Source of the DNA: Eubacteriales bacterium
GTDB lineage: Bacteria > Bacillota > Clostridia > Oscillospirales > CAG-272
Direction of reading: 5' to 3'
DNA: 56,819 nucleotides
Assembly: GCA_045652665.1 (NCBI GenBank)
Contig: JAZRUS010000054.1
Span: 1 to 56,819 of the forward strand
Below the pieces are notes generated by a model. That model was not told the DNA's origin. It worked only from the letters and a program-made list of their open reading frames with translations, and made no database searches. The position numbers and the translations under genes were made by a program. Below, in pieces: positions 42-42,047 of the stretch. Within the stretch, counting starts at the first letter, position 1. Every line of letters starts with the position of its first letter.

Positions 42-50
42 TTTTGAATT

Positions 51-20551: not shown

Positions 20552-20593
20552 AAGATGCAGTTGCACCATCCGGTGCGACTGCATTTTTCTTTT
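20552..20593. terminator. Terminator between tRNA-Ser and the convergent integrase
   Basis: ATGCAGTTGCACC-ATCC-GGTGCGACTGCAT followed by a T-tract. Confidence 0.75.
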
Positions 20594-21821: not shown

Positions 21822-21840
21822 TAAAAACCTCCTTTTTAAC

Positions 21841-23594: not shown

Positions 23595-23904
23595 CTCCGA
23601 TGGCGAGAAGTAGCCTTCTGTAAGAGGTCAAAAGAGTGTCAAGATTGACGACTCTTATCGCTCCCTGGTGGCAGAGCCTCGTCAGCTGATTAAGGTTGTT
23701 TCCTTGGTAACGAAGTTCCTTGTTTGCTTCTCTCAAATCCGAGTTAACTACGACTTTACCCCTCATGCACATATCGAGAATAAACTTTCGCATCGAGGGA
23801 GAATCAGACTTTTTTTTGAGCCTTTCAAGAAGCTCTTTTTCTTCGGGTGTGAGGCGTATTGTTATCGTTTCGGTTTGCGTTCTCAAACCGTCATCTCCTT
23901 TCAA
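23569..23904 (-). CDS. mobC: Mobilisation protein MobC (RHH)
   Basis: ITIRLTPEE and LRYQGNNLNQL motifs; overlaps the relaxase start. Confidence 0.9.
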   Translation of the reverse strand: MKGDDGLRTQTETITIRLTPEEKELLERLKKKSDSPSMRKFILDMCMRGKVVVNSDLREANKELRYQGNNLNQLTRLCHQGAIRVVNLDTLLTSYRRLLLAIGGDTNGDRK

Positions 23905-23957
23905 AATAAAAGTGGGTATGGGCTTCTGCCCGAAAATAAATAAGCGCTATAAGGTCG

Positions 23958-24011
23958 CCACCGATTTCGGTGGACGTCCATGCGCTACGCTTGCCCCAGA
24001 GCAAGCGTAGC
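23958..24011. other. Candidate oriT
   Basis: Upstream of mobC; hairpins CCACCGA-TT-TCGGTGG and GCTACGCTTGC-N6-GCAAGCGTAGC; contains GCTTGCC, similar to pC221-type nic. Confidence 0.55.
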
Positions 24012-24061
24012 AAAGCTTTCTATCACTATCCTGAATTTTAGCGCTATTTTCATTAAAGTCG

Positions 24062-24171
24062 GTGACAACGTGACAGCTGGTTTGCTACTGATTTTTGCCG
24101 TCACTATGCCGTGCACGCGTCGCCCTTTGACAGCGTATCTGCCGCTATCCAATGAGCCGTCACGCTGTCAC
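24062..24171. repeat. Six KTGACRRC octamers, candidate replication iterons
   Basis: Forward copies at 24062, 24070 and 24127; reverse copies at 24097, 24156 and 24164. Confidence 0.6.
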
Positions 24172-25282
24172 TGACCGCAATAATCGGCTTATTATTCGGT
24201 GAGGAAGAACCGTCGTCAATAACCGTAATTTCCTCGTCATTGAGGGAAAATTTAAGTATTCTCTGGGAGTTCGTTCTTACGCTCTCAAATCGTAAACCGA
24301 TCTTCGAAAGCTGCTCGTGATAACGCACTAAATTCTTCTTTATCATATTGGAAGGAATATCAATATCGAGCTTATTTTTGATGCCTTCGCTGAGCTCGGA
24401 AGCACTACAAGAATATTCTCCATCGGTGATAATATTGGTATGGGAGAAGAGATATAGTTGTGTCGCTTTCACCGTCAAATTAAGCTCTTCGGGAACGTAC
24501 TCCGTGCCGTCACTAACCTGCCAAATACAGTTATCATCGAGCCTGAGTTCAATCTCTCTGTCAACCACGTCGCGCCCCGAAATAAAGAGCTTACCGCGCC
24601 TCTCAGTGCGCTTCGGGCGGAGCAGTAGCCAGTAGTTATCAACCGCGCCAACAAGTGCCGTAGAACCCGAAACAGCGTTGTACTGATCGTTGTCTTGCAT
24701 CTTCCTCGTATGGTGAACAACCAGCAGTGAAACGTTATGCGATTGGGTGAATTTATGCAGAGGAATAAGGTCGTTATAGTCCTTCTCATAGAGGTTCGCA
24801 TTCTTGCTTTCCGGGCGAATATAATTGAGCGTATCTATCGCTATAAGCACGGTGTCGGGATGATTACGAATGAAGTCGTCAAGAGCGTCAATAAGACCTT
24901 CGTCTATTCTGATTGCCTGGTTTGTAAAATGGAAATTTGATGGCATCTCGTCTGTCATTTGCATCGCTCGAGCTTGTATTCTGTCCTCTGTATCCTCGAA
25001 TGAAAGATAGAGTACCGTACCTTTTTTACTTGGGAAACCGAGTATGCTTTCACCTTTAGCAACCGCTATACAAAGGTTAAGAGTGAAGAAGGATTTACCT
25101 GCCTTTGGCGCACCTGCAAGGAGCGTAAGTCCTACGGGGAGAACAGAGGAAATAATCTGTTCCTTATGGTTTATTTGTTTATTCATAAGCGTTTCACCGT
25201 CAACGGTTTTAAAACGCTTTATACCTAAGAGCTCCTCTCTAATCCGCTTTTGTTCTTCATCAAAATCAAATGAGTCAAACAT
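24104..25282 (-). CDS. AAA_25 / RepA-type helicase
   Basis: LAGAPKAGKS, VLYLSFED, LIAIDTL, VHHTRK and SGSTAL.GAVD motifs. Confidence 0.9.
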   Translation of the reverse strand: MFDSFDFDEEQKRIREELLGIKRFKTVDGETLMNKQINHKEQIISSVLPVGLTLLAGAPKAGKSFFTLNLCIAVAKGESILGFPSKKGTVLYLSFEDTEDRIQARAMQMTDEMPSNFHFTNQAIRIDEGLIDALDDFIRNHPDTVLIAIDTLNYIRPESKNANLYEKDYNDLIPLHKFTQSHNVSLLVVHHTRKMQDNDQYNAVSGSTALVGAVDNYWLLLRPKRTERRGKLFISGRDVVDREIELRLDDNCIWQVSDGTEYVPEELNLTVKATQLYLFSHTNIITDGEYSCSASELSEGIKNKLDIDIPSNMIKKNLVRYHEQLSKIGLRFESVRTNSQRILKFSLNDEEITVIDDGSSSPNNKPIIAVSDSVTAHWIAADTLSKGDACTA

Positions 25283-25580
25283 CTGTCTTTCCTCCAAATT
25301 TCGTTTTGTTTATCGCCTTCATTTGCTCCCTGGCTTTTTCCTTTCGCTCCTCGGAGCAAGGATTAAGAAGACGAAAGGTGAAGTATTCCTTCCGCACCTC
25401 GAAGCATAACTGTCCGCATCCGTCATCATCGGTAAGACGGCAAAGCTCGGGATGCTCGGAGGCGTATTTCGTCAGCCTATTTTTAAGAGCAGTATTGTAC
25501 GTTTGTATCGTTGTAATATCATTTTCTTCATCGAAGAAAATCCCGGTAACCTTGTGTATTTTCTTTATTCCGGTTATCAT
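25275..25580 (-). CDS. Hypothetical IME backbone protein
   Basis: Coupled to the helicase start; GGGG RBS; TYNTALKNRL..YA..HPELC. Confidence 0.7.
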   Translation of the reverse strand: MITGIKKIHKVTGIFFDEENDITTIQTYNTALKNRLTKYASEHPELCRLTDDDGCGQLCFEVRKEYFTFRLLNPCSEERKEKAREQMKAINKTKFGGKTDV

Positions 25581-25855
25581 TTTTAGAATCACCCCTTTTT
25601 TAGAAATAGTCTTCAAAATGGCAAAAATTCGTTAGGTCTAGACCGAGGAAATAAGGCATTTTTCCTTTTCTGTTACTTGGATTTTATCAGCTGATCGATA
25701 AAGCTCTTAAAAAAGGCGATTTGCCGAATTTCCACGGACTAAACCGACGAGGAAAAGCCGTGCAATTTTCATCAAAAAAGGGCAGGAATTCAAGGCAAAA
25801 AGGCATAGCAAAAAGTCTATGTCTTACCTAAAATTCCTACCCTTGTATCTCGGAT

Positions 25856-26110
25856 TCACTGCCGAGAGGATGAAATTGATTCGCCACGCGAAGCGGCACA
25901 AAAATTATGTAATCTTTTGATGCTCAGTCCAACGAGCTGATGACATTTAGGACACTCAAGTATAAAATCCGCATACGGCTTCTCCGATAACCTAAAGACT
26001 ATACTGTCGTTTCTGATATCTCTGTCTGAAACGTCTGCAAATCTGTGGTTTCCGTATGGGCACTTCAGCTTTGGCATACCACGTCTGCCATCGTCACAAG
26101 CTTTTTCCAC
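25856..26110 (-). CDS. Small Cys-rich (zinc-ribbon-like) protein
   Basis: CPYG..ECPKC; begins directly after the lexA stop. Confidence 0.55.
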   Translation of the reverse strand: MEKACDDGRRGMPKLKCPYGNHRFADVSDRDIRNDSIVFRLSEKPYADFILECPKCHQLVGLSIKRLHNFCAASRGESISSSRQ

Positions 26111-26111
26111 G

Positions 26112-26744
26112 TCAGCACCTCCTTCTCCTAGAGGCTTCTAAGTTTTTCAGAACTCTGATTGCCACACCCACAATGTGTACTTCGGAAAGGATAATATCGT
26201 CGAGCTCGTCGTTTTCGGGATGGAGAATAAAACGCTTATTCTTCTCGTCACGATAAAATCTCTTTAGCGTTGCACGCCAACCGTCCGAATGTTCGTCCTC
26301 TATCATTGCAACTACGATTTCTCCATCGTCTGCGGTGTCCTGTTTTCGTACGTAGACGGTATCTCCGTTATCGATACCGACCTTTATCATAGAATCACCG
26401 CTTGCAATAAGACCAAAGTATTCGCCGGGGCCGAGTGATGCCTCGTCGACGGGAAGATATCCCTCTATATCCTCAATAGCGAGAGTAGGAGCACCGCACG
26501 CAATTGCACCAACGATAGGCATCCTGGTGTAAGAGAAATTGTCAGCAGTGATAGTCTGGTATCTTCCATACTTTTCTATAAGACCTTCTTCGACAAGGCG
26601 ATTCATGTATTTTGATACAGTGGATTTCGCCATTCCGAGCGTATTTCCGATTTCAAGAGTCGTGGGGCATACGCCTCTCTCCTTCATAAAGCTCGTAACG
26701 AAGCGGTAAACGTCCATCTTTCGCTCGTCATTCTTCGGTCTCAT
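26112..26744 (-). CDS. lexA: LexA-family repressor
   Basis: N-terminal wHTH (PTTLEIG), IACG cleavage region, GDSM Ser and TLKR Lys; ATG 26744 with AAGGAG. Confidence 0.88.
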   Translation of the reverse strand: MRPKNDERKMDVYRFVTSFMKERGVCPTTLEIGNTLGMAKSTVSKYMNRLVEEGLIEKYGRYQTITADNFSYTRMPIVGAIACGAPTLAIEDIEGYLPVDEASLGPGEYFGLIASGDSMIKVGIDNGDTVYVRKQDTADDGEIVVAMIEDEHSDGWRATLKRFYRDEKNKRFILHPENDELDDIILSEVHIVGVAIRVLKNLEASRRRRC

Positions 26745-26773
26745 AGTCAGTCTCCTTTGGTTTTGATATAACC

Positions 26774-26823
26774 CGAACAAGAGTTCGTGATATAATTATA
26801 GCACACCGAAAACCGCTTGTCAA
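26774..26823 (-). promoter_or_regulatory. lexA promoter with Gram-positive SOS box
   Basis: TTGACA-17-TATAAT (26823-26795) followed by CGAACAAGAGTTCG (26774-26787), fitting GAAC-N4-GTTC. Confidence 0.85.
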
Positions 26824-26880: not shown

Positions 26881-26949
26881 TTTTTGAAAAAATCGCGTCT
26901 TCTTTGATTAAGGCAGTGTATTTTTTTGTCATTGGGACAGAGAAAAGGT
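26881..26949. repeat. ~65 bp imperfect direct repeat, copy 1
   Basis: TTTTTGAAAA...TCTTCTTTG..AGGC.GTGTA.TTTTTTGTCATTGGGA..AGAGAAAA shared with 39052-39119. Confidence 0.8.
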
Positions 26950-26983
26950 CTGCCAACTAGACAGACCTTCAAAGATTAAATTT

Positions 26984-27988
26984 TTAGGTTTTAAATATTG
27001 GATCAACGTCATCGACTCGACCATAATATACATGCGCTGCTTCGCGACATCCGCCGTCGCATATATCTTTTTTATCGCAATCTTTACACATTTCAGGAAG
27101 ATAATCCCGGCTTCTGAATCGTATCCAATACTCATTCTGTGCAAGAGTGTCAAGCTCATCATATCTACAAACACGAACAGGAGAGTGATTACAAACCTTG
27201 AGATATCCGCTTGGATCAACAACGCAGAAACCTTTTGCAGCAGAGCAAAGGTTGCTTACTTGAATATGCTTATATTTTTCGGGATGATCTATCGCACATA
27301 ACGGCAATTCCGTTCCAACATGCCCATACTTGTTGGATTTCGCTAACACAGCTTCTGCAATATCAAGCATTTGATTGGTTTCTTCTTTTGTCAACAAATA
27401 CTCTTGATTTTTAAGTCCTCGTCCACCGGGCAAAAATCTATTTAGCAAAACATAGTCTGCACCTTTTATAAGAGCGTAAGCAATATTCTCATATAGTTCG
27501 GGAAGATTCTTTTTTGTCACAGCAATGTTTGCCGTCGTTCGAATTCCTCTAATTTTGGTTTTTTCGAATAATGACAACACATGCTCAACATTATCTATGC
27601 CGGTATGTTCCATAAATGTTTCTATTCCGGGAATACTAATGCAGATTGAAATTCTTCTTTTGGCAATAAAATCCAAAAAGTCATCATTGATTTTTCTGCC
27701 GTTTGAAATGATATTAAGCGAGGCTCCTCTCTGCAAAATATAATCAATGAGTCGAGTTAAATCCTCACGCATTAAGGGTTCACCGCCTGTTAACGTAAAA
27801 GATTCAACACCATTTTTCATTAAAATATCAACTACAGAATACCATTCTTCAAGAAATAGCTCATCTTTTTTATAGTTTTCTTCTGATTCCCAAGGACATG
27901 AACAAAATAAACATTTGTGATTGCAACGATATGTTAATTCAAGTGCAGCAACGCTCGGAAGAGGGGTTAAAAAAATGTTTGTTTTCAT
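26984..27988 (-). CDS. Radical SAM/SPASM domain protein
   Basis: CNHKCLFC, TGGEPL; C-terminal CSAA..C, VC and CKDC....CDGGC. Confidence 0.93.
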   Translation of the reverse strand: MKTNIFLTPLPSVAALELTYRCNHKCLFCSCPWESEENYKKDELFLEEWYSVVDILMKNGVESFTLTGGEPLMREDLTRLIDYILQRGASLNIISNGRKINDDFLDFIAKRRISICISIPGIETFMEHTGIDNVEHVLSLFEKTKIRGIRTTANIAVTKKNLPELYENIAYALIKGADYVLLNRFLPGGRGLKNQEYLLTKEETNQMLDIAEAVLAKSNKYGHVGTELPLCAIDHPEKYKHIQVSNLCSAAKGFCVVDPSGYLKVCNHSPVRVCRYDELDTLAQNEYWIRFRSRDYLPEMCKDCDKKDICDGGCREAAHVYYGRVDDVDPIFKT

Positions 27989-27994
27989 TCTTAG

Positions 27995-29545
27995 TTACCT
28001 TTTAGGTGTTGTTCCAAGCACATTCTTTATATGCTCTAAATATGCTTTTGAGCTAAAGTGTGTAGCGGTATCTGTAGATATTTCCGTCAATGTTTCAGAA
28101 CCTCTCAAGAAACTCAATGCTGTATCATATTCAGTTGAGCTATAGCTCATGTCATTGGGATAACTGTGTACTTCTTTGGTAGAACCACTAGCAACAAATG
28201 TAAACACGATTCTATTAATATCCCACGAGGAACTCGAAGGATGCAACTTTTTAGCACAATCATCGCAGTATACAGAAACCTTTGCTGAATGACCTAATGC
28301 TACAAACTCTTTTGCCAACTCACGATATTTACGCACAATATCTTCGTTGCCTTCAAAAACTCGCATTTCGAACGTCTTTCCACAATTTTCGCAAGTACAT
28401 GTAATATTGGCATCATCAGGGATACGCATAGAATAACACATCGCACTTCTTTCGGGCGGTTCTTGATATCCACTTTGCGAAGCTGCTAATTTCAGAAGCG
28501 CCTCATCAATTTCAGCTCTTGTACCTAGTCCATGCTTTTTATCTCTGCCTTTAGAATAATACACCGCTACAATCATTCCTATATCATACGCACCTTGCAT
28601 AGCATGAATAATCAGTTCGTCTGTGAGCTTCGTTGTTTTATTGAATATGTCTTGAGAAAGTTTAACATATGGTAGGATAATTTCCCAGATATGTTCTGCT
28701 TTTTCTTCACCAGCTTTAGTCTGCAACATTCTTTCTGCATTCCTGTCGGTAAATTCGATATCAATATGATCCTTTAGATATTCAAATTGTTGAACATTTT
28801 CATACACAGCATTATCCTTCAAATAAAACAGAGTTGCACATATCGCTCCATAAAATGAAGTAATGATATATTCGCCACACACTTTTTCTTGACCTAGAGA
28901 TGCATACTTTTGTCTGCAGTATTTCATCACTTTTTTGACAAATTCTTCTGGTTGATGTGCGTCTTCGCATTCCTCTATTGTTTCGAAGAAATCGTCATCG
29001 ACGAGCAAGTTGTTCTTTTCGCCAATTTCCCAAAAACAAGCATCCAATTCTGAAGTAAAAGCTTGGTTTTCAACAATATAATGTGTGTCTTCAACACCTT
29101 CCGCTACAAGTTCCTTCTTAAACGCAATAACTTCATCTGCTAAGTAGAGATCGAGAATATCATTAGCCAGCTGCATTGCATCATCCAATCGTCCAAGTTT
29201 ACGCAATGTCATGGCCTTGCCGAACAATGCTTTTCCGTATTCTTCATCAATTGCAATAGCTTTCTCGAACGCATCTAACGCATTGTTGGGTTCGTTGATC
29301 ATATTATAGGCGTTAGCTAAATTGTTCCTCGCCTCAGCGAATCTTGGCTCTAAAAACAAGGCGCGTTTATAGAAACGGATTGCCGATGGCAACTTTTTTT
29401 CAATAAGTGCCGCATCTCCGTCTGTTTTGATGGCAATGGCACAAGTTGAGCAATCCTTTGGGCAATCGTTTTCATGCCCCTCGAATTCGCAACTAATTAC
29501 CAATTCTTCGTTCCTTCCAAGATCATGCATTTCCATGTCCCCCAA
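27995..29545 (-). CDS. TPR protein with Cys-rich N- and C-terminal domains
   Basis: TPR repeats (AEARNNLANAY..A..AFEKAI.ID); CPKDCSTC at the N-terminus; AMCY..CENC..CDDC at the C-terminus; start uncertain. Confidence 0.8.
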   Translation of the reverse strand: MGDMEMHDLGRNEELVISCEFEGHENDCPKDCSTCAIAIKTDGDAALIEKKLPSAIRFYKRALFLEPRFAEARNNLANAYNMINEPNNALDAFEKAIAIDEEYGKALFGKAMTLRKLGRLDDAMQLANDILDLYLADEVIAFKKELVAEGVEDTHYIVENQAFTSELDACFWEIGEKNNLLVDDDFFETIEECEDAHQPEEFVKKVMKYCRQKYASLGQEKVCGEYIITSFYGAICATLFYLKDNAVYENVQQFEYLKDHIDIEFTDRNAERMLQTKAGEEKAEHIWEIILPYVKLSQDIFNKTTKLTDELIIHAMQGAYDIGMIVAVYYSKGRDKKHGLGTRAEIDEALLKLAASQSGYQEPPERSAMCYSMRIPDDANITCTCENCGKTFEMRVFEGNEDIVRKYRELAKEFVALGHSAKVSVYCDDCAKKLHPSSSSWDINRIVFTFVASGSTKEVHSYPNDMSYSSTEYDTALSFLRGSETLTEISTDTATHFSSKAYLEHIKNVLGTTPKR

Positions 29546-29898
29546 TCTAGCTCATTAGCACGAGTTAATTCATGAATAAGTACCGAATTTGCCGATTTAG
29601 TCAAATACGGATTTAAATATATTGCTCCATCGTATGTATACGAATTTACATTACCATTGTCATTTTTGGAAGCTTTATTTTTATTCCAACCTACATATTG
29701 ACTGAAATTAATATCAATGTTTGTGCGTATATACAGTTTGGCGAAATGCACAAGATTATATATGTTATCTATATGGTAAGCCCTTGCTTGTCTAATCATT
29801 GCGCGGATACTAAGTTTTGTAGGTTCATTCTGCATTCTGTATTCAGGGATATTTGCTCTTGCCCATGCATCAATTTCCATAGCTTCTTGGTTCATAAT
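29497..29898 (-). CDS. Hypothetical protein
   Basis: GGAGG RBS before MNQEA; degenerate IHELTR; overlaps the next ORF. Confidence 0.55.
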   Translation of the reverse strand: MMNQEAMEIDAWARANIPEYRMQNEPTKLSIRAMIRQARAYHIDNIYNLVHFAKLYIRTNIDINFSQYVGWNKNKASKNDNGNVNSYTYDGAIYLNPYLTKSANSVLIHELTRANELDWGTWKCMILEGTKNW

Positions 29899-29922
29899 AC
29901 CATGACCTCCATTCAAAAACAA

Positions 29923-30438
29923 TTACTTTAAAACTGCCGCTTGGAACTCTTCCAAAGATTGGGGTGTATCTCCGAAAGATACATGGTTTTTATTTACAAA
30001 CATACCCAATGCGAAAGAATTCTCAGCAGCATAGTATTCATTAGTGTAGTATCTTTTTTCATCTTCATCGAAAATCAATGCCACGTAATTACACTCACAC
30101 TCATGGCGCGCATCGGAAAATTCCAAAATGAATCCGAATTTACTGCGTTGCTCATTTTCAACAAAATGAACAGGCAAAGATCTATATTCTATCGGAATGC
30201 GAACTCTCAACTTATTTGAACATATTTCGAACGCACGCAACACCAATTTGTTTAACATCTCTTTGTTGTTGTAAAATTGTTCTTTCAAAAAAGTAGATTC
30301 ATAAAAAGCATCCCTTAAAGCAACACAACAAAACTGATAATTTGACGAAGATTTAATCCGTTTTTGATTTTCACGAATTTGTGCTATAAGTTCATCAGTT
30401 TCATCTTTTGTTCCAAAAAGTTTAGATAAAAATCCCAT
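29923..30438 (-). CDS. Hypothetical protein
   Basis: Starts MGFLSKLFG with GGAGG RBS; within the operon. Confidence 0.75.
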   Translation of the reverse strand: MGFLSKLFGTKDETDELIAQIRENQKRIKSSSNYQFCCVALRDAFYESTFLKEQFYNNKEMLNKLVLRAFEICSNKLRVRIPIEYRSLPVHFVENEQRSKFGFILEFSDARHECECNYVALIFDEDEKRYYTNEYYAAENSFALGMFVNKNHVSFGDTPQSLEEFQAAVLK

Positions 30439-30457
30439 TTTGTTAGGCCTCCGTTTG

Positions 30458-32407
30458 TTATTTATAAATTGTTCCACTTGCAGAGCTTACATCTGTACCC
30501 CAATAAATTTCGTCTGCTCCCGAACTTACATAGATCGTAATAGTGCCACTCTTTTTGTATCCAGAAGAACGATAAAGAGTAATGCTTTCAGTTTTGGAGT
30601 TTGTCGGAGTTGTTGAGAATGAATAGGGATAGACACCGCCTTTTAATTTTACAGTAATGCTTGAAGACGAAGAACTGTCTGAAGCATAAGAGGAACTTTT
30701 AGGCTTAATTGAATACGATATTACAACCTTGCTACCATCGTATTCCGCTGATGTCGTAATAGTAAAGTAATCTTCAAAGTTTGAAGAAGACAAAACAATC
30801 TTATCATCATTATTGTTCTTGTTAGAAGAACCGCCGGACGATCCACCCGAAGAGCCACCGCCAGACGGGTAATAAGACCCGCTACTGTTGTATCCACCGT
30901 TATTCGATGATCCGGAGGAACTTGATGAAGAACCATCGCATTCTGATAAGCTTGCAATTAGAATAATAAACAATACTATTCCGATCAACACCCAAGCGAC
31001 AATCTTCTTAGTTCTTGCACTATCATCTTGCGCTTGTTTAGCGGCTTGCACTCTTTCCAACATAACGGATTGCTGTGCGAGAGATTGTGCATCTTCTTGC
31101 AAACGTGTTTTTAACTCGTCAATGTCGCTAAATTGTGCTAGTAATGCTTTAGCAATCTTCAAGGCGAGATTGGTTTTCTGATAGTTGTTATGCAGTTTAA
31201 TTGCAGCTTCTCTTGATACAACGCAAATGCTTATACGAATTTTTTCTATAATTTCATCTTCGAGATCACTATATTCAACATCTTTATCAAATGATTTTAC
31301 GCGAGAAATAAATGTTTCAACATCAGACATTGTTGTAGAGAATCCCATCCGATCTGCAGCTGACTTTAACAATTCCATTTCAGTTGCAAACTCTTTGAGA
31401 ACGGTAGACGTCGCTACAATGTTTGCTAATGCCTCGGAATCTTCTTCGAGGCGTTCAGCTAAATCGCCGACCTCCGCAAAGATTTCTTGCATTGCGGTTA
31501 CAAGATCCAACGCAATCTCCGTTAATTCTTTTTCATTGTGGAGATACAGCGCTAAATCTCTGATTTCTCTGCCGAGCGACATGCTATTATCGTGGGGCAT
31601 ACCGCTTGCTTGAGATCTTAATTGCAACGGCTGAACAAAAACATCCCATTCTTTAACTCTCTTTATTAAACCACGAATGTTCTCTTTGATCGCTGTTTCA
31701 TCAGAGAGTCCTTTGATGCGTTCTATATGCTTTTCAACTGCTTCAGCATGCTTTTGGATTTCAGTTTGCATGCGTATTTCATACTGATCCAATGCATCCG
31801 AGATTACGATTCCATCATCATAGTCCTCGTTGGCAACATACTGCTTTGCCAGTATCGACACAAAAGCCATATAATCTTCATCGGAGAGAGTGTGTAACTT
31901 TTCGGTGAAGAGTTGTCTAATCGCATCTCTTTTAGCATCAATTGCCTCATCAACTTCGGCTTCCGTCACTATCTTCATACCTGCTTCTTTTCTGCAGGTG
32001 TTTACTATTTCGAGTACAGAGTCAATAGTAACAAGACCGAATTGTTCGTCGATATCAGTCAACATGAAGCCTATATCATAAGCTTCGACATCTTGCATGA
32101 TGCTGAAATTGAAAAGAAGGGCGTTGATTTTAGAGATGGGTGATAGCCCTTCTGTACTAATTTCCTTATTTTCAGCTATGCATTTGTTAATTTCTTTAAT
32201 TTCCTTCTTATCGATGTCCAAAAACCAATCAAGCTCTACCAACAAACGCTTTGCCGGATTTAAGAGTGTGGCTTGTGCTGCTTCGCCGCTACCGTCCTCT
32301 AAAAAGAATGCTTTTTCTTCGGCTTTTGATATGATAGTTGCGCGTTTATCTCTTGGGGTCACTTCGAGGAGATAAAAAGGATTATTACTTATATTGAAAA
32401 CCTGCAC
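30458..32407 (-). CDS. Large helical membrane protein with divergent J-domain-like N-terminus
   Basis: NPFYLLEV...LLNPAKRL..ELDWF start without HPD; long helical body; one TM; Ser/Gly linker; beta-rich C-terminal domain. Confidence 0.7.
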   Translation of the reverse strand: MQVFNISNNPFYLLEVTPRDKRATIISKAEEKAFFLEDGSGEAAQATLLNPAKRLLVELDWFLDIDKKEIKEINKCIAENKEISTEGLSPISKINALLFNFSIMQDVEAYDIGFMLTDIDEQFGLVTIDSVLEIVNTCRKEAGMKIVTEAEVDEAIDAKRDAIRQLFTEKLHTLSDEDYMAFVSILAKQYVANEDYDDGIVISDALDQYEIRMQTEIQKHAEAVEKHIERIKGLSDETAIKENIRGLIKRVKEWDVFVQPLQLRSQASGMPHDNSMSLGREIRDLALYLHNEKELTEIALDLVTAMQEIFAEVGDLAERLEEDSEALANIVATSTVLKEFATEMELLKSAADRMGFSTTMSDVETFISRVKSFDKDVEYSDLEDEIIEKIRISICVVSREAAIKLHNNYQKTNLALKIAKALLAQFSDIDELKTRLQEDAQSLAQQSVMLERVQAAKQAQDDSARTKKIVAWVLIGIVLFIILIASLSECDGSSSSSSGSSNNGGYNSSGSYYPSGGGSSGGSSGGSSNKNNNDDKIVLSSSNFEDYFTITTSAEYDGSKVVISYSIKPKSSSYASDSSSSSSITVKLKGGVYPYSFSTTPTNSKTESITLYRSSGYKKSGTITIYVSSGADEIYWGTDVSSASGTIYK

Positions 32408-32454
32408 GATTTCCTCCTATAATAACTTTACTGAACCATATTCGGCAAAGGTGT

Positions 32455-33867
32455 TTATGCAAATCCTATCTTTCGTTTTTCTTCCTTTTGAGGAAGTGTA
32501 GATAATGCCTTATCAAAACATTCCTTGTCAATAAATTCTTTTTCTGATTTTACTGCGAGTTTTCCGGCTTCGCGCAGAATGTACGTTACATCAGAAAATG
32601 GGTGACTATCGAGTGCTCCCGAAATATAGTCGATGCTTGCATCTTCGGCTACAGGGAGTTCTTCAAATTTAGATGTTAAGTATGCAGCAATTTCTTCTTT
32701 GCTTGCCATCTTGACCTCAATAATATGGTCAAAGCGACCTCTACGCAAAATCGCAGGATCGATCATGTCTATCATGTTAGTCATAGCAAAAACTAACACA
32801 CCGTTGGAAATTGCTTCGGGAATTTTTCGAAGGAATTCTGCCACTTCTTCTATGTGATGCGTACCACTTGCGGTAGACATATTTCGATTGCTCAAAAATG
32901 CTTCCATTTCATCAATTACGAGAATGGACGGAGCGGCTTTTATTGCTTCGCTAAAGACTTCGGAAATCTTCTTGCTTGTGTCATGTATGTACGAACTTGC
33001 TATAGTTGAAGAGTCAATATCAAACCGTTTCCATCCCAAATATTCAGTTAACCGTTCAACCGCATAGGTCTTTCCACAACCGGGTGCGCCATGCAGAATT
33101 GTTGCTCCAGGGAACGATATTCCCATTCGCTTATACTTTTCCTGATTTAGTACAATATCAATGATATTGTCGTTGAAAAACGCTTCAAGATCGGGACGAC
33201 CAATTAATCTGAATGTAGTATCAATAGTGGGCAATGCAACATTCGTTTCAATGTTTTCCTCGTCGTTGATCATTTCCATCAAATCCGTGTTTGATGTGTC
33301 AACCTCTTCGGGTATGGTAACATCAAATCCAGCTAATCGGAAAGATTTGCAAAGCACAACAGGAGGTATCCAAGACATGATTCTTGCAATTCTTTCAAAC
33401 GAATTGGCGGAAATGTTAATTCCTCCCGTAAGCCATTTTCCATACACATAGTCCATGGGACTCGCTTCTTCTGTCTGATTTCCGGGGAGTATTAAGGAAT
33501 ATTCTTCGATGTAGACGGCATCCTTCAGATCAATTTCGGGAAACAATTTCAGCGTTGTGTTAAACGCTATCGAAAATGCCTCTACTTGTACAAAACTATC
33601 CGGGAAGGGGCCGTTTTCAAGTGAAGATATTAAATAATCGCCCTTACTGCAAAATACTCGATATTTTCCCTGTGTTTCAATCTCCACGAATATACCGTCG
33701 GGTAAAGAATAATCCCTTAACCATGATTCATAAAGAGCCGCGGTTACCGCAAGGACATAAGTATCCTGATTGGTAGAATAAATCTGCCAACTCTCACTTG
33801 AGGAAATCACCTTTTTTATTCTTTTGTCATCGGATATTGAGAATCCTCTCGGTAACCATTGCATCAT
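32455..33867 (-). CDS. Classical-clade AAA ATPase with unknown N-terminal domain
   Basis: GAPGCGKT, ILVIDE and SRH IDPAILRRGRFD; ends RKIGF. Confidence 0.9.
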   Translation of the reverse strand: MMQWLPRGFSISDDKRIKKVISSSESWQIYSTNQDTYVLAVTAALYESWLRDYSLPDGIFVEIETQGKYRVFCSKGDYLISSLENGPFPDSFVQVEAFSIAFNTTLKLFPEIDLKDAVYIEEYSLILPGNQTEEASPMDYVYGKWLTGGINISANSFERIARIMSWIPPVVLCKSFRLAGFDVTIPEEVDTSNTDLMEMINDEENIETNVALPTIDTTFRLIGRPDLEAFFNDNIIDIVLNQEKYKRMGISFPGATILHGAPGCGKTYAVERLTEYLGWKRFDIDSSTIASSYIHDTSKKISEVFSEAIKAAPSILVIDEMEAFLSNRNMSTASGTHHIEEVAEFLRKIPEAISNGVLVFAMTNMIDMIDPAILRRGRFDHIIEVKMASKEEIAAYLTSKFEELPVAEDASIDYISGALDSHPFSDVTYILREAGKLAVKSEKEFIDKECFDKALSTLPQKEEKRKIGFA

Positions 33868-33872
33868 AGTGT

Positions 33873-36356
33873 TTACCCCTTAATGATATTTGCGATATCA
33901 AACATTCCAGTACCCGAATCTGCATGAATTTGAATAGAAAGCAATTCAAACAGAACGCGGCGAAGTTGATCAATATCGTCATTTGCCAATGCTTGATCTC
34001 CAAGCTGCTTAAGTTGTCTAAATCTCGTCACATCCGAATAGTTAGAGGAGGATGTAACAGAACGCTGATACCAATCAACGATGAACCAATCCTGACGAAT
34101 CAGTATCATTGTATTCTTGGTTTTCATGCTATCTAAAATATTGTCAAAGTCGGTATCATTACGATCTATCGATCTCTGTGCGGTGCGTGTAAGATTGTCA
34201 AATGCTTGTTCTTCTGCTTTGGTAGCGAATTGGCGAACAATTTCATTGAAAAATTCTACGCAACTATCAAGATCCATCTGTCTAATCGTTTTGAGGTTTG
34301 CTTGACGAGTTTTATTGATAAGCTTCTTCGCATCAAGCAAGTCGTTGTTGGCTTTCTGCACATCCTCGGCTTCACTTTGAGGTTGACTATCAAGGTTCGC
34401 TGCACGTTCAGCTTTTTTACGAGCTTCTGCAAGTTGAGGATCATCAACCTTTTCTGCCATACTATCAATTCTGTCTAATACCTGACGGCCTTGCTCAGCG
34501 ATGCTATCAATGTCGGTAAGATCAATTTGTCCTTCCTGACGAGAATAGAAGTTGCGATTTGCAAAGGATGCACCAATGCAAGGGATCGATACCTCCAAGT
34601 TGATCGTACCCGAATCCAATATTTCGTATTCGCATTCGATATCTGCACCTGTAGGAACTACACCTGAATCAATATCAGTACCTGTTATCTTCAACATGCC
34701 GATAAATCTGTTATCGGTAATAGGAGATTGGATATTACCTTCCCACAGCTTAATATTGATGGAGTCATTCGTGCCTGCTTTAAGTGTTTGTCCAGCCTTA
34801 ACGGTAAGAGTACCTTTCTTAGGAAGAGCATCTCCTTCTTCGACCAAAAACATAAGTTCGGGAACACCGCCAAGCTTGTCAATAACCTCAACTCCGATAG
34901 AATGCGATGCTGGTATAGCACCAATTGTTGCAAGAGTTTTGGTGATCACAATGGTGTTGCTTCCAATAGGTTGCTCACGACCAAATTCGTCCATTACTTT
35001 TACAGTAAAGGCATTTTCTCCGTTTTTGCTCAACGGAAGCGAAACCATCATATTGTTTTTCAATGCAGCAGAACCGGAACTCCAACCTGTATCGGAGCTT
35101 GTGAACTCTATCGTGTAGCCGTTCAAATCATTTCCAAGCACACACATAATTTTGGCAGAATCATTGGGTGTTCTTGCAGTATATTTAAACGAAAGATCAA
35201 TGTCTGTTTTGATAACTTCGTTAGCTGCTTTTCTACTGTGAGTATTGGACGACCAATCAATAGACTCAGCAAAAATACTTGCGCCTTCTGCAACAGCGGT
35301 CATCGGGTTTACATCGATGTTCGCCGGCAAAGACAACTCGTAAGCAATCTTATCACGCAAAGGCTTGTAATTTGTGGGGCCACCTACGAAAACAATTCTT
35401 TCAATATCGTTTGCAGAAAGACCTGCCTTGTTCATCGTTTCTCTTGTGGCTTCTACGGTTTCTTTAACGAGATCTGCGATAATGCTATCTACCTGTTGAC
35501 GGTTTAGATCAATGTCGAGATACATCTCGTTTCCGTCCTCATCGGTAGTACGAGCTTCGCCCTCGCTCAATGCGATAGTGCTTGTTTCGTTAGCCGAGAG
35601 TTCAATCTTTGCTCTTTCTGTTGCCCATTGTGCAACTCTGCAAAATGTTTTATATTTGCGGTTGATAAGAAAATCTTCGGGCAAAGAGAAGTTGGCTCTC
35701 AACCACGGAACAACAATCTGATTGAACACCATTCTGTCAATATCTCTACCGCCACACATTTCTACTCCGCCATGTGCCAAAAGATTGACCTTGCCATTGA
35801 TATTTTCGGCAATAGAAACGTCGAATGTACCACCTCCTAAGTCGTATACCAAGAAAATTCCTTCTTGCTTGGAGGCACGCATAATACTCATAATTGCCGC
35901 AACAGGCTCTTGCATCAAGGCGACATTATTAATACCTGCCATTTTTGCCGCTTGAAGAGTAGCATCCTTCTTCATCTGATTGAAGGCGGCAGGAACAGTA
36001 ATAACGACCGCAGTTTCGGGATCGTTTCTAATTTCTTCGGGCAAATAGCCGTACAAAACTTTCAAAATTTCCGCGCTACATTCTTCGGGCGTAAGCGAGA
36101 GTTGAGCTGCTTCGAGTTCAATTTTCGTGCTTGTTCCCATAAAACGCTTGAAGAGGGTTGCTGAGTTGCTGGGATTATAGGGAGCTTGGTTATAAGCTTT
36201 GTTTCCATAATAGCGGTTACCACGCTTATCAACATAAATCGCAGAAGGGGTTACATCGTTCTGTTCGGGACTTTTCCATACTCTAACTGTAGTTCCGTCG
36301 TAGGAACAAATTGCGCTATTTGTAGTACCCAAATCAATGCCTATGTAGTATCTCAT
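33873..36356 (-). CDS. Atypical Hsp70 family protein (827 aa)
   Basis: GIDLGTTNS, ITVPAAF, EPVAA, YDLGGGTFDVS and VGGPT motifs; non-DnaK C-terminal half. Confidence 0.93.
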   Translation of the reverse strand: MRYYIGIDLGTTNSAICSYDGTTVRVWKSPEQNDVTPSAIYVDKRGNRYYGNKAYNQAPYNPSNSATLFKRFMGTSTKIELEAAQLSLTPEECSAEILKVLYGYLPEEIRNDPETAVVITVPAAFNQMKKDATLQAAKMAGINNVALMQEPVAAIMSIMRASKQEGIFLVYDLGGGTFDVSIAENINGKVNLLAHGGVEMCGGRDIDRMVFNQIVVPWLRANFSLPEDFLINRKYKTFCRVAQWATERAKIELSANETSTIALSEGEARTTDEDGNEMYLDIDLNRQQVDSIIADLVKETVEATRETMNKAGLSANDIERIVFVGGPTNYKPLRDKIAYELSLPANIDVNPMTAVAEGASIFAESIDWSSNTHSRKAANEVIKTDIDLSFKYTARTPNDSAKIMCVLGNDLNGYTIEFTSSDTGWSSGSAALKNNMMVSLPLSKNGENAFTVKVMDEFGREQPIGSNTIVITKTLATIGAIPASHSIGVEVIDKLGGVPELMFLVEEGDALPKKGTLTVKAGQTLKAGTNDSINIKLWEGNIQSPITDNRFIGMLKITGTDIDSGVVPTGADIECEYEILDSGTINLEVSIPCIGASFANRNFYSRQEGQIDLTDIDSIAEQGRQVLDRIDSMAEKVDDPQLAEARKKAERAANLDSQPQSEAEDVQKANNDLLDAKKLINKTRQANLKTIRQMDLDSCVEFFNEIVRQFATKAEEQAFDNLTRTAQRSIDRNDTDFDNILDSMKTKNTMILIRQDWFIVDWYQRSVTSSSNYSDVTRFRQLKQLGDQALANDDIDQLRRVLFELLSIQIHADSGTGMFDIANIIKG

Positions 36357-36721
36357 TTTTCAATCCTCCCAAGTAGTACGGTGCCGGTTTTAACAACAAC
36401 ATCGTTTTGCATTATGATAGGCTCCATTGTCTGCGCGACATAGAGAACATCGTCTGTTTCAAATTCTTCAATATTTAGTGGCGTAACAGCCATGCCGGGA
36501 TCGTAGATTTGTCCGTCAAGGTCTATAATTCTCAATCCTGAATCATCAAGAGCTTTCATCACTCTTTTGGAAAACCAAGAAAATTGACTATTATACTTTG
36601 TCTGTTCCTCTACATCTAATTTGCTAATCGCTTTTGCGAACACACGCTTAAAACGGAACATTTCCGAACCTATCGTTATTAGATTCTCTCTCATAATTTC
36701 TAATTCGTTATTCATATTCAA
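36353..36721 (-). CDS. GrpE-like protein (divergent)
   Basis: Helical N-half, then G..YDPG...EP.....VVKTGTV resembling the GrpE beta domain; overlaps the hsp70 start. Confidence 0.6.
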   Translation of the reverse strand: MNMNNELEIMRENLITIGSEMFRFKRVFAKAISKLDVEEQTKYNSQFSWFSKRVMKALDDSGLRIIDLDGQIYDPGMAVTPLNIEEFETDDVLYVAQTMEPIIMQNDVVVKTGTVLLGRIEK

Positions 36722-36732
36722 CTCCTTGATTT

Positions 36733-37470
36733 TTATTTAAATTTAAAGCCAGTAGGAGCTTTTTGGGATATTGAAGTTCCGTACATGTTAATGTAGATAG
36801 TCTTATATCTTCTTCCATCAACGAACGAGATGTCGTAAATGTCTATCATTCCATTAATACCATTCACACTCATTGAGCCACGACGATCCCAAATAATTGC
36901 CTTTCCGTCAGAGGTCATCAAAGATCTTAAATACTTTTCAGAACCTCCAACTCCTGTTGTATAGATTGGCTTATTGGGAACAAGTCCATATTCCTCGTCA
37001 TCGAGGTTATCATTCTGTGCTTCCTCATTCAATCGAGAAGTTTCTCGATTTTGAGTCAAGATATTATCAAACATATTAAGCGCGTTGATATCTTCGGCAG
37101 ACTCCAACGCAAACGAATTGTTCTTCATGTTTATGGTACAGTAAGCAAGAACCTGTTGTGCAAGCATGTCATTATTGATATATTGTTTGTGATTTACTTG
37201 CAAGCTTACGATTATGTGTTCATCGGCACTTTTGGTTACAACTCGTCTGATAAGCACACCCGAATATATGGTCAAAACATTGTAATAATCTATCGGCTTT
37301 AATGCAGATAAATCAATGCCTAAAATCACGGCTAATGACTTAATGATACGGCTCGCTTGTTCCTTACCTCCGGGAAAGACCATGCCCACCATTTCCGGCT
37401 TATAACATTTATAAGCTAAAGCAACTTTTTTATCATGTTGGTTATTTTTTAAGAAGTCAAACAATCCCAT
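36733..37470 (-). CDS. Hypothetical protein
   Basis: Starts MGLFDFLK with GGAGG RBS; C-terminal YGL.P.KPI...YL..L...R.GS...IDIY...NMY...APTGF domain. Confidence 0.75.
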   Translation of the reverse strand: MGLFDFLKNNQHDKKVALAYKCYKPEMVGMVFPGGKEQASRIIKSLAVILGIDLSALKPIDYYNVLTIYSGVLIRRVVTKSADEHIIVSLQVNHKQYINNDMLAQQVLAYCTINMKNNSFALESAEDINALNMFDNILTQNRETSRLNEEAQNDNLDDEEYGLVPNKPIYTTGVGGSEKYLRSLMTSDGKAIIWDRRGSMSVNGINGMIDIYDISFVDGRRYKTIYINMYGTSISQKAPTGFKFK

Positions 37471-37492
37471 AATTTTTTCCTCCAAAGTTTAT

Positions 37493-38161
37493 TCAATCAT
37501 TCGGCAAACAGATTTGACACGGATCGTACTTGCCTGAATAATAGTCGCGCTCTGTTAAACGGCGCACAGATTTCTTGTCTTTTATGAAGATGCAGTTTTC
37601 TTCATGATAGCATGATCCTGTTTCGGTTACATAGAAATCACCATAATAACTGCTTTGCTTGATTAAAAACGAGACAAGGGGGATGGTTATCAACAAACAC
37701 ACTACCACAATCATTGCGATAATCGCAAGCTTCTTATTCTCATGATATTTTGCAACTGCCAAGGTGATTAAGTCGGGGTGAAGGATATAATGGGCAAATT
37801 CATTTGCCTCACGTTCTTCTTCTACATCAAGAGGAGAGGTGCCGTTTCCTTTCATATGACCGCAAGCGATATGTCCTAATTCATGCGACAAGGTATAGGT
37901 CTTATCATTGGCGTTTGTATCATCACGAATAAAAACAAATTTCAAGCCATTTCCGTTGTATGAAAATGCCTTGCATCCTTGTGAATAATTTTCAAGGTTT
38001 AGGCTGCTTAAAATGTTGTTTTTTTCACCCAACGAGTATTCAACGATTTCGTATCCCTGATCTTCTATTATGTAAACAAGATTGTCAAGTGTAACTTTTC
38101 CGAGCTTATACTTTCGGAGTAGCGACTTTGCTCGATTTATTGCAATTTTATCGTTAGTCAT
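37493..38161 (-). CDS. ImmA/IrrE-family metallopeptidase with TM helix and C-terminal Cys/His domain
   Basis: TLSHELGH..EEREANEFA; TM; YVTETGSCYH...C...PCQIC. Confidence 0.85.
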   Translation of the reverse strand: MTNDKIAINRAKSLLRKYKLGKVTLDNLVYIIEDQGYEIVEYSLGEKNNILSSLNLENYSQGCKAFSYNGNGLKFVFIRDDTNANDKTYTLSHELGHIACGHMKGNGTSPLDVEEEREANEFAHYILHPDLITLAVAKYHENKKLAIIAMIVVVCLLITIPLVSFLIKQSSYYGDFYVTETGSCYHEENCIFIKDKKSVRRLTERDYYSGKYDPCQICLPND

Positions 38162-38549
38162 TCTCATCCTCCTTGCTCGCTATAATTAAACCATTGAATG
38201 GTTTAACGATAGGTGATGAGTCCTCAGCGTTTGAACAGCGATTGTATTCTAATGTCAAGATACTTTTAACCGCATGAACACCCTTTACATCTAATTTAGA
38301 GAGCATCGAACAAATCTCATAAAATTGATCATTAAATATCGTTAAGTCGGCATCATACACTTGTTTCAAGTTCAGAAGCTTGCATATCTTAATCACGGTA
38401 TCATAGGAAGTTCCTCCAACCCCTTTGGTTAAAGCGTTGGATAAGGTACTATACGGAATACCGCTAACTTCCGAGAACTTTTTTACGCTTTTGTACTGTC
38501 GTTTAATTTCATCTCGAATTAATATTGTAATACTGTCCAAGGTTATCAC
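38154..38549 (-). CDS. Xre-family HTH regulator (ImmR-like)
   Basis: SVKKFSEVSGIPYSTLSNAL..G......TVIKICKLL; coupled to the ImmA-like gene. Confidence 0.85.
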   Translation of the reverse strand: MITLDSITILIRDEIKRQYKSVKKFSEVSGIPYSTLSNALTKGVGGTSYDTVIKICKLLNLKQVYDADLTIFNDQFYEICSMLSKLDVKGVHAVKSILTLEYNRCSNAEDSSPIVKPFNGLIIASKEDEND

Positions 38550-38578: not shown

Positions 38579-38607
38579 ATTATATCACCAAATTTCGATT
38601 TTGTCAA
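38579..38607 (-). promoter_or_regulatory. Sigma-A promoter of the cargo operon
   Basis: TTGACA-17 bp-TATAAT with extended TG. Confidence 0.75.
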
Positions 38608-41666: not shown

Positions 41667-41725
41667 ACTCGAAATCAGTTTGTGGATAACACCACACGAG
41701 GGTTCGAATCCCTCCCTCTGCGCCA
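41667..41725 (+). pseudogene. 3' half of host tRNA-Ser(CGA) (attR)
   Basis: ACTCGAAATCAGTTTGTGGATAACACCACACGAGGGTTCGAATCCCTCCCTCTGCGCCA followed by a terminator hairpin. Confidence 0.9.
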
Positions 41726-42047
41726 ATAAATGAACGGTCGGGTTTTTCCGACCGTTTATTTATTTTCACAGTCGGTCGGTCTCGAACACTGCTCGCGGAG
41801 CGAGCGAGGGTACAGCTATGTGTCGGTCGGACACGACACATTACGCTGGATACGGCATCCGTATAGCCGTATGCTGCAACTCCACTCGGAGATCGATAAG
41901 CTCGCTTGTTAGGCGCAGAGTGTAAGCATCTTCGCCATAGGCGAATACCCCTCCCACAACCTATTCGGATCTATTCCGATCAAACGACGGGTTCAATGCG
42001 CAGAAGAATCAAAAAAAGCAGAACCCACAAATAGGGTTCTGCTTTTT

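Follow-up and report, generated by a model that had tools for sequence, protein, structure and literature searches.

What is an extra Hsp70, accompanied by a putative exchange factor, an AAA ATPase and a membrane-anchored partner, doing on a mobile element of a clostridial genome? The question is raised by a 56,819-nucleotide stretch of DNA (contig JAZRUS010000054.1, positions 1 to 56,819 of the forward strand; GenBank assembly GCA_045652665.1, Eubacteriales bacterium of the CAG-272 lineage of Oscillospirales), referred to here in its entirety as the window. An initial sequence-only reading had described an eleven-gene operon (g01 to g11, in order of transcription) within it and had taken all eleven genes for one chaperone/unfoldase system. 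We find that seven of these genes are local accessories and that a four-gene core is widespread. Our leading interpretation, which we hold with a little less than even confidence, is that this core is a self-contained, membrane-anchored protein-remodelling conflict system powered by Hsp70 and AAA. The core moves horizontally as a four-gene cassette, whose components in the window are as follows.

36353..36721, minus strand: g04, putative minimal GrpE-like nucleotide exchange factor of 122 residues, core gene; overlaps the start of the Hsp70 gene by 4 nt.
33873..36356, minus strand: g05, Hsp70 paralogue of 827 residues, core gene; PF00012 matched with an E-value of 1.4e-61 over residues 5-364.
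32455..33867, minus strand: g06, classical-clade AAA ATPase of 470 residues with a family-specific N-domain (residues 1 to ~230), core gene although missing in some variants; PF00004, 3.7e-27.
30458..32407, minus strand: g07, adaptor of 649 residues, core gene; helical module (1-330), further helices, transmembrane segment (464-482), disordered S/G-rich linker and extracytoplasmic β-domain (536-648).

The idea of a dedicated, membrane-associated set of Hsp70, exchange factor-like protein and AAA ATPase on a mobile element is borne out by the co-occurrence of homologues in other genomes, where the core is colinear in a collection of 51 loci (38 from an Hsp70 scan with one genome per species, 7 new ones from a g04 scan and 6 plasmid loci found by tblastn). 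The notion of eleven genes forming one conserved system fails by the same comparison, as only the g04-Hsp70-AAA-g07 core recurs widely. The core genes share a strand and follow one another as g04, Hsp70, AAA and g07, with a fifth gene, C4, inserted before g07 in some loci and with two alphaproteobacterial variants as the exception. Hidden Markov models (HMMs) of the individual parts detect the C-terminal half of the Hsp70 in all 51 loci, g04 in 43, the AAA N-domain in 42, the g07 module in 43 and C4 in 17, counts that are descriptive because the models were built partly from the same loci, L115 and L118 share one transposon, and L034 and L037 share one chromosome. Wherever g04 is present (43/51), it sits directly upstream of the Hsp70 gene, and seven of the eight loci lacking g07 end at a contig edge. 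The g04-alignment scan gave 24 loci, including the 7 new ones from other phyla, and the Hsp70 gene lies directly downstream in every one of them (24/24).

The loci are spread over many families of Clostridia and extend to Bacteroidaceae, Caldilineaceae, Desulfatitalea, Hydrogenedentota, Myxococcales and Spectribacter (about seven phyla), with plasmid-borne copies in Shewanella, Aeromonas, Vibrio, Polaromonas, Sinorhizobium and Aminobacter; the Hsp70 type alone comprises at least 2659 clusters at 90% identity. A search for the g07 family was positive for 1 of 400 other genomes sampled across the phylum and for 0 of 150 from the same taxonomic family, two of which belong to the same genus. This patchy and rare occurrence, together with the mobile contexts described below, identifies the core as a rare, horizontally moving accessory. 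No relative was detected in a pattern scan of IMG/VR, within the reach of which lie close relatives only, and tblastn with the C-terminal half of the Hsp70 found none in 50,697 phage records.

Several loci depart from the common layout. The Sinorhizobium medicae plasmid (L119) and the Aminobacter plasmid pAM01 (L124) carry a three-gene variant without AAA, in the order g07-like, g04-like, Hsp70; in L119 an ISNCY element interrupts the Hsp70 gene, and a type IIG restriction-methylase gene comes after the latter. On the Caldilineaceae chromosome, about 35 kb from L034, two adjacent Hsp70-like open reading frames (ORFs) encode 1121 and 730 residues without g04, AAA or g07 (L037).

The Hsp70 was correctly recognised at the outset by its nucleotide-binding domain (NBD), which is matched by PF00012, but the description of its C-terminal half as unlike DnaK does not hold. 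In an AF2 (AlphaFold2) model with a predicted local distance difference test score (pLDDT) of 84.4 and a predicted template modelling score of 0.78, the protein is laid out as an NBD (1-366), an inserted β-domain of ~95 residues (379-473), a linker and substrate-binding β-domain (SBDβ, ~474-600) and a helical region (616-808). VIA alignment to ATP-state DnaK (4jn4; Z 35.1, root-mean-square deviation (rmsd) 3.2 Å, 465 aligned residues, model 1..607 against chain 1..505) runs through NBD, linker and SBDβ. We therefore conclude that the modelled C-terminal half is a true linker and SBDβ followed by a helical, lid-like tail, with an inserted β-domain, and that it is too diverged for Pfam, in which the NBD alone is matched. 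The ATPase motifs GIDLGTTNS, DLGGGTFD and GGPT are invariant in 30/30 sequences, and the protein falls below the canonical NCBIfam cut-offs for DnaK (NF001413, 222 versus 648 bits) and HscA (TIGR01991, 195 versus 709 bits). As canonical grpE-dnaK and dnaJ genes are present on other contigs of this genome assembly (82% complete, 84 contigs), the operon's Hsp70 is an extra paralogue.

The GrpE-like character initially ascribed to g04 fares less clearly, with profile-profile comparison lending it moderate support and family searches none: neither Pfam and NCBIfam (E 0.01) nor PDB-HMM profiles match the protein. All that the PDB profile search returned was chance coiled-coil matches with E above 0.7, which were rejected. 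In hhalign, an 18-sequence g04 profile aligns to 25 genuine GrpE sequences with a probability of 60% and a P-value of 8.6e-5 over 109 colinear columns, the order in the alignment being a long helix followed by the C-terminal β-domain. At the level of sequence profiles, we thus read g04, with moderate confidence, as a putative minimal GrpE-like exchange factor.

The third partner was identified from the start as a classical AAA protein, and the PF00004 match, which spans positions 2-130 of the 131 in the profile, confirms it. The Walker A motif G..G.GKT, the Walker B residues DE, sensor-1 TN and most of the arginine-finger motif R.GR.D are invariant in 25/25 sequences, with the pore-loop region partly conserved in the same set, and the nearest NCBIfam models are PAN, FtsH and CDC48. 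The N-domain of ~230 residues has no relatives in Pfam and reaches a best score of 0.75 in the ESM Atlas. Judging by its motifs, g06 is a single-ring classical AAA protein with conserved ATPase motifs.

The fourth partner, g07, had been described as a helical transmembrane protein with a J-like start lacking HPD. The helical character, the single hydrophobic segment (464-482 in a transmembrane scan) and the lack of HPD are confirmed; the J-like start finds no statistical support. In hhalign, the whole module aligns to J-domains with a probability of 0.4%, and its first 85 residues reach at most 1.1%, with a P-value of 0.048 versus 0.31 for a reversed control; neither result is significant. The modelled helix pattern of residues 10-78, a piece whose fold was searched only as part of the larger model, is compatible with a J-domain, and a score of 0.79 against DnaJ clusters of the ESM Atlas is a lead only. 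Fold searches with the AF2 model (pLDDT 85.3), which barely covered the N-terminal 80 residues, gave no Foldseek match in the PDB at E 1e-3 or better, and among 48,161 chains compared by VIA-align there were none but generic helical matches, of which the top one (8f6q_A, Z 11.7, rmsd 3.0, 112 aligned) lies within the helical-bundle range and was set aside. The g07 alignment matched nothing below E 0.04 among PDB profiles, the family has no Pfam model, and ESM Atlas matches at 0.92-0.94 are to unnamed clusters only.

A complex of g07(1-330) with Hsp70(1-610) is weakly predicted, with a score of 0.37 versus 0.02 for the best control. That mark is reached by 58 of 80 solved complexes and by 2 of 110 mismatched pairs, counts that hold roughly, as our own alignments were used here, and scores up to 0.60 include only seven of the 80 solved complexes together with both of the mismatched pairs that passed. 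At least 65% of contacts are common to the three runs, and the partner has a pLDDT of at least 80.

Conservation of g07 is limited to residues 1-330, with N9, F11, L14, R54, E58 and N136 invariant. The family counts 2294 representatives at 50% identity, the best 150 of which span 301-1171 residues, and 60 of these 150 listed relatives, chosen with a preference for long ones, were surveyed for additional domains. Those recognised are binding repeats, with no enzyme among them; CpXC was present in 6, Flg_new (the Listeria-Bacteroides repeat) in 5, Sel1 in 4, tetratricopeptide repeats (TPR) in 2, and BspA-type leucine-rich repeats (LRR), Ank and FHA in 1 each. In a second clade of Clostridia, the g07 homologue is soluble (~370 residues) and the separate single-pass membrane protein C4 (~570 residues) is encoded between AAA and g07. 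The Shewanella and Aeromonas plasmids carry, at the C4 position, a protein annotated as peptidoglycan-binding, and in Vibrio one of the same type follows g07. Hsp70 co-chaperones and NLR-type sensors are built in this way, with a constant module joined to variable binding domains. Among individual relatives, those in L002 (13928-16879) and L007 (13930-16761) begin with a CpXC domain of zinc-ribbon type (~250-290 residues) that precedes the conserved module, whereas in L004, L008 and L013 the module is followed by a cysteine-rich segment and several transmembrane helices.

The same architecture could belong to a machine for assembly, export or surface display. Its client would be the variable extracytoplasmic part, either the C-terminus of g07 or the fifth protein, which might be an adhesin or a cell-wall-bound factor of the element and which would be kept unfolded, extracted or inserted by Hsp70 and AAA. 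The fusion of a conserved cytoplasmic module to variable extracytoplasmic domains would suit such a machine, and so would the nature of those domains, among which are Listeria-Bacteroides repeats, BspA-type LRR and peptidoglycan-binding annotations. However, a membrane segment is missing from many g07 relatives, which bear repeats of cytoplasmic type (TPR, Sel1, Ank, FHA) instead, and no secretion-system genes are linked to the cassette, which makes this explanation distinctly unlikely.

What surrounds the cassette elsewhere bears more directly on a conflict role. On the Shewanella and Aeromonas plasmids, it directly follows TnsABCDE of a Tn7-like element; on Polaromonas plasmid pPNAP01, it is flanked by Zorya (ZorA, 1.7e-211) on one side and Gabija (GajB, 2.3e-237) on the other. 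The AAA-less variant of Sinorhizobium adjoins GajA (4.5e-275), GajB (9.2e-241) and a type IIG restriction enzyme, that of Aminobacter a GajA-like gene (2.7e-41), and the Vibrio cassette is found near a PLD-like gene, an integrase and a RelE/ParE pair. As far as gene content can indicate, these plasmid contexts favour a conflict role, a function in defence or in envelope stress being one that we infer.

A mobile proteostasis or stress-tolerance module would be one alternative, with the private Hsp70 and AAA acting as a disaggregase or in membrane-protein quality control against heat, envelope or solvent stress, much as AAA+ disaggregase islands occur on mobile elements. Its enzymatic parts, all of which are of chaperone type and appear active from their motifs, would fit this role, as would the missing effector domain, the many housekeeping neighbours, the membrane anchoring of g07 and the fifth protein, and the peptidoglycan-binding annotation of the latter in Proteobacteria. 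Yet general quality control would not lead one to expect hypervariable adaptor ends and a very diverse adaptor pool, the distribution is patchy and the cassette very rare (1/400, 0/150), Gabija, Zorya and restriction genes adjoin it, it also travels in the cargo of a Tn7-like element, and no accompanying small heat-shock or protease genes were seen. On balance, we consider a proteostasis module unlikely.

A conflict role has its own difficulties, the main one being the missing effector domain: no toxin, nuclease or other recognisable effector domain was found in the core or in the 60 sampled g07 relatives, which fits either a mechanism based on unfolding or a role outside defence, such as stress tolerance or surface-protein assembly. 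Neighbouring genes in 27 mostly clostridial loci are heterogeneous and largely housekeeping, with three serine recombinases. Within 6 kb, these loci have 213 neighbours of 130 residues or more, and the tally covers the 122 that were compared with Pfam and PADLOC, a batch of 89 being left out and two antisense-ORF artefacts dropped. PADLOC matches among these 122, counted from the first 25 of 71 families, number at least two for mad3, two for mad8 and one each for Dsr2, PDC-S02, PD-T4-6 and mad6, which is not clearly above background. Evidence from defence islands amounts to five plasmid contexts, two of which hold the AAA-less variant, and PADLOC-DB 2.0.0 has no match for Hsp70, g04 or g07, nor for g03, g08 or g10 (g09 was outside the scan). 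The kinship of g04 to GrpE is moderate, given its hhalign probability of 60% and its lack of a Pfam or PDB-HMM match; no significant link ties g07 to J-domains, HPD being absent from the N-terminal region of 25/25 aligned relatives; and structure prediction lends weak support to the binding of Hsp70(1-610) by g07(1-330).

With these points weighed, we still tentatively favour a mobile conflict cassette and propose the following course of action for it. At the envelope, g07 and its membrane partner would select or sense a target and pass it to Hsp70, which g04 would recycle, and the AAA ring would unfold or extract the client. The role would be one in biological conflict, against phages or other mobile elements, and the outcome could be either a dismantled invader protein or a host membrane protein remodelled to abort infection. 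In the lineage of the window, the Xre/M78 gene pair at the head of the operon could make expression inducible, and the small membrane proteins and the pair formed by a TPR protein and a radical S-adenosylmethionine (SAM)-SPASM enzyme would be add-ons.

In a bolder form, which we think rather unlikely, though not far-fetched, the cassette would represent a new immune class, with a protein-unfolding machine as executor in place of a nuclease, a pore or a nucleotide signal. A constant Hsp70-docking module, fused in the manner of NLRs to hypervariable repeat or envelope domains (in g07 and the fifth protein), would capture an invader protein at the membrane, and the private Hsp70, exchange factor and AAA ring would dismantle it or trip an abortive response at the level of the membrane. 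Whatever its role, the cassette is compact and clearly bounded, and the core is more widespread than the sequence-only reading had supposed. It is worth experimental work. Three of its partner families, represented by g04, by the adaptor g07 and by the N-domain of the AAA protein, have no database model, and it offers a tractable four-gene system in which to ask how an Hsp70 works without an HPD-bearing J-protein and with a minimal exchange factor and, as a second question, whether defence at the cell envelope draws on the power of chaperones and unfoldases.

How far, then, does the system extend within its own operon? In the window, eleven co-oriented ORFs run on the minus strand from 38549 to 26984, with junctions, from g01 to g11, of -14, 7, 11, -4, 5, 47, -20, 0, -49 and 6 nt, and the GC content is 0.37-0.43 across 27-39 kb versus 0.44-0.52 in most of the flanking DNA. 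ORFs, junctions, composition and promoter thus agree with the initial picture of a tightly packed, AT-rich, one-strand operon behind a consensus promoter, and the remaining genes and signals are these.

38579..38607, minus strand: sigma-70-type promoter upstream of g01, TTGACA-17-TATAAT (12/12) with an extended -10 TG.
38154..38549, minus strand: g01, small Xre-like helix-turn-helix (HTH) protein of 131 residues, lineage-specific accessory; HTH_26 and HTH_3 matched at E ~1e-3, 19.5 versus 22 bits.
37493..38167, minus strand: g02, M78 (ImmA/IrrE-like) metallopeptidase with HELGH, a hydrophobic segment and a cysteine-rich tail, accessory; PF06114, 2e-9, 37.8 versus 22 bits.
36733..37485, minus strand: g03, 250 residues, N-terminal MGLFDFLK helix and conserved C-terminal domain, accessory; no Pfam, NCBIfam or PADLOC match.
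29923..30477, minus strand: g08, 184 residues, MGFLSKLFG near the start; no homologue in any fetched locus.
29497..29922, minus strand: g09, 141 residues; no homologue in any fetched locus.
27995..29545, minus strand: g10, 516-residue TPR and cysteine-rich protein, accessory; TPR_1, 6.3e-12.
26984..27988, minus strand: g11, radical SAM/SPASM enzyme of 334 residues, accessory; PF04055, 1.2e-18.
26939..26967, minus strand: terminator-like hairpin GGTCTG...CAGACC (26947-26967) with a T-run, directly after the g11 stop; read from the sequence and not among the sites listed by the signal scan.

Promoter-like sites in the region total 34, versus 36.3 ± 5.8 in shuffled sequences, so that only the perfect match and the position of the g01 promoter carry weight. 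Metatranscriptome contigs from three runs of one study (X5, X6 and X8) fall on g01-g07, one of them, for example, over 1407 nt (37123-38529) with 10 differences. These give a hint only of expression, as contigs from RNA libraries may derive from DNA; g08-g09 and most of g10-g11 are uncovered in these runs, gaps that prove nothing. One contig of the bovine-gut run X5 joins position 29467 to 30458, skipping 990 nt, and therefore points to a close relative of the element without g08-g09, in which g10 directly follows g07, as it does in L002 and L013.

Five of the ORFs (g03, g04, g07, g08 and g09) have no significant family match. Among those that do, the Xre assignment of g01 stands on HTH matches that remain below the Pfam cut-off, the ImmA-like peptidase is well supported by PF06114 and HELGH and has a hydrophobic segment readable in its sequence, and the TPR/cysteine-rich and radical SAM-SPASM proteins are as first described, with TPR_1, PF04055 and both cysteine motifs of g11 in evidence (CX3CX2C and, at the C-terminus, CX2CX5CX3C). 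In PADLOC, g02 is RmrA/capP-like (1e-9 to 1e-7), the operon as a whole showing generic AAA, M78 and radical SAM similarities only, and g11 is PqqE-like (1.5e-30 over residues 11-331) while falling below every equivalog cut-off. The MGLFDFLK and MGFLSKLFG segments noted earlier are present just inside g03 and g08. In relatives of g03, the C-terminal domain is fused to two transmembrane helices, and the accessory genes of the window's clade encode mostly small membrane-associated proteins (g03 relatives with two transmembrane helices, C10 and c23).

One could nonetheless regard all eleven genes as a single system, in which the radical SAM-SPASM enzyme would modify a component or a client of the chaperone machine. 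The one promoter, the one terminator and the tight or overlapping junctions are in its favour, as is the TPR and radical SAM pair directly after g07 in L002 and L013, full-length homologues of g10 being found only in these two loci, beside the cassette, with a fragment in L022. A first pattern scan for g10 as an independent module returned nothing, and an alignment-based scan returned the two known loci and two TPR-only matches, so that this candidate was dropped. Across loci, however, the TPR and radical SAM genes occur in 3 of the 50 others, that is, in one narrow lineage, and g08 and g09 in none, while Xre, M78 and g03 are each present in 9/51; the bovine-gut relative of the element lacks g08-g09, and in all other phyla the core stands without TPR, radical SAM, g08 and g09. 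The proposed coupling to a protein-modifying enzyme thus does not generalise, and an eleven-gene system appears quite improbable.

The operon is the main cargo (11.6 kb) of a 21.2-kb integrative mobilizable element at a tRNA-Ser gene. The integrase gene adjoins the tRNA gene, whose 3' end recurs as a direct repeat at the opposite border, and the element encodes a relaxase.

20494..20552, plus strand: attL, 3' part of tRNA-Ser(cga), one end of the element; repeat families D2 and D6.
20628-21821, minus strand: tyrosine integrase, element backbone (20628..26780).
22209-23594, minus strand: MobA/VirD2 relaxase, element backbone.
24104-25297, minus strand: AAA_25 protein, element backbone.
26112-26780, minus strand: LexA/S24-like repressor, element backbone.
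38701-39009, minus strand: DUF6809 protein, other element gene.
39145-40428, minus strand: HTH-HipA-like kinase gene, other element gene.
40657-41247, minus strand: HTH_17 protein, other element gene.
41667..41726, plus strand: attR, direct repeat of the 3' part of tRNA-Ser (18 nt at 100%, 39 nt at 95%).

This setting could mean that the cassette serves the mobile element itself, in counter-defence, establishment after transfer or exclusion of competitors. Inspected cassettes always lie on or next to mobile DNA (an integrative element, a Tn7-like element, plasmids, insertion sequences, integrases), and an ImmR/ImmA-like Xre/M78 pair would control the operon here. Against such a function, the cassette occupies more than half of the element in the window, relatives reside in chromosomal sites without transfer genes, and no match was found in the 50,697 phage genomes; we regard it as very improbable.

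A number of further features of the element and its surroundings were recorded. In the product of 39145-40428 (427 residues), an Xre-type HTH is fused to a kinase domain that is C-terminal and HipA-like, and a partial match of 68% identity is located near the cassette in L003. A 49-nt repeat is present at 26889-26937 and 39058-39106 (82% alike), with a third copy at 22273-22321 (65%); the first two flank the operon and the DUF6809 gene, each right after a terminator-like hairpin and before the promoter region of the next gene, and a second 12/12 promoter (26823..26795) lies downstream of one of them. The repressors of the element could share this repeat as an operator. At 179 nt upstream of the tRNA, 23 nt (20300-20322) exactly duplicate an internal stretch of the tRNA-Ser gene (20479-20501) and may be left over from an earlier integration event. 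Just outside the element, a TIR/SEFIR-domain gene stands beside an IS3-type transposase gene (44506-45312 and 45455-46642; GC 0.30-0.34), with tRNA genes for Lys (42048), Leu (42755) and Trp (46798) around it.

How does the cassette compare with known systems? The bacterial Hsp70-AAA+ bi-chaperone is formed by DnaK-DnaJ-GrpE and ClpB. Like it, the cassette combines an Hsp70 with intact ATPase motifs, linker and SBDβ, a putative exchange factor encoded just upstream and an AAA protein in the same operon. Unlike the two-ring ClpB, its AAA protein has a single domain of the classical clade, nearest to PAN, FtsH and CDC48, and unlike DnaK-DnaJ-GrpE, it has no HPD-containing J-domain, its Hsp70 bears the inserted β-domain of ~95 residues and a long helical tail, and it is a rare accessory on mobile DNA in a genome that retains the canonical genes. 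ImmR/ImmA and CapH/CapP are regulator pairs, which the head of the operon resembles in having an Xre-like HTH gene followed by an M78 peptidase gene on a mobile element, although the g02 peptidase differs in its hydrophobic segment and cysteine-rich tail and the pair occurs in 9/51 loci only. The AAA domain of g06 matches the PADLOC models for IetA of the anti-phage system IetAS (2.7e-25); g06 was nevertheless rejected as an IetA, as it scores 82 bits versus a cut-off of 510 with the NCBIfam model IteA, no protease domain except M78 was reported in the operon, and its N-domain is unrelated to anything found.

Closer parallels come from predicted conflict systems. Kaur et al. (2020; PMC7159879) describe HSP70 and GrpE with DnaJ- or TPR-fused proteins in GTPase-centric GAP1-N2 systems of predicted conflict role. 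The cassette likewise has an extra Hsp70, a GrpE-like protein and an adaptor; relative to the parts of that paper covered here, it differs in having no linked GTPase, tubulin or FNIII protein, in having an AAA protein in place of the second NTPase and in a g07 family that lacks a Pfam model. CnuD of type III CoCoNuT, as presented in the sections consulted of Bell et al. (2024; PMC11090510), joins an Hsp70-like NBD-SBD to HEAT-like repeats, has degenerate Walker A-like motifs and is accompanied by McrBC-type GTPases and HEPN. The cassette Hsp70 shares with it the succession of NBD, SBD and helical region, CnuD too being encoded in defence-type operons, and is set apart from it by invariant ATPase motifs and by an operon without McrB, McrC or HEPN. 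EACC1-protease modules fused to DnaK-like domains, which according to the portion available of a preprint (PMC12642450) lack lid helices and are ~50% identical to DnaK, similarly draw an Hsp70-type domain into a defence-type module as a possible sensor, although in the cassette the Hsp70 stands as a protein of its own, has a lid-like region and is accompanied by no protease or EACC1. HSP70 domains are mentioned in passing only in the parts seen of PMC8195603 and of a ParA preprint.

Extra Hsp70s in conflict systems have so far been predicted only together with GTPases or McrBC, none of them with experimental tests in the literature searched. A description of the cassette was not found in full-text literature searches, the scope of which excluded the supplements of PMC7159879 and PMC11090510, where related operons may be listed. 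That no named system matches, as was first proposed, agrees with the PADLOC results for Hsp70, g04, g07, g03, g08 and g10. The cassette is an uncharacterised variant of the chaperone-centred systems of conflict or proteostasis.

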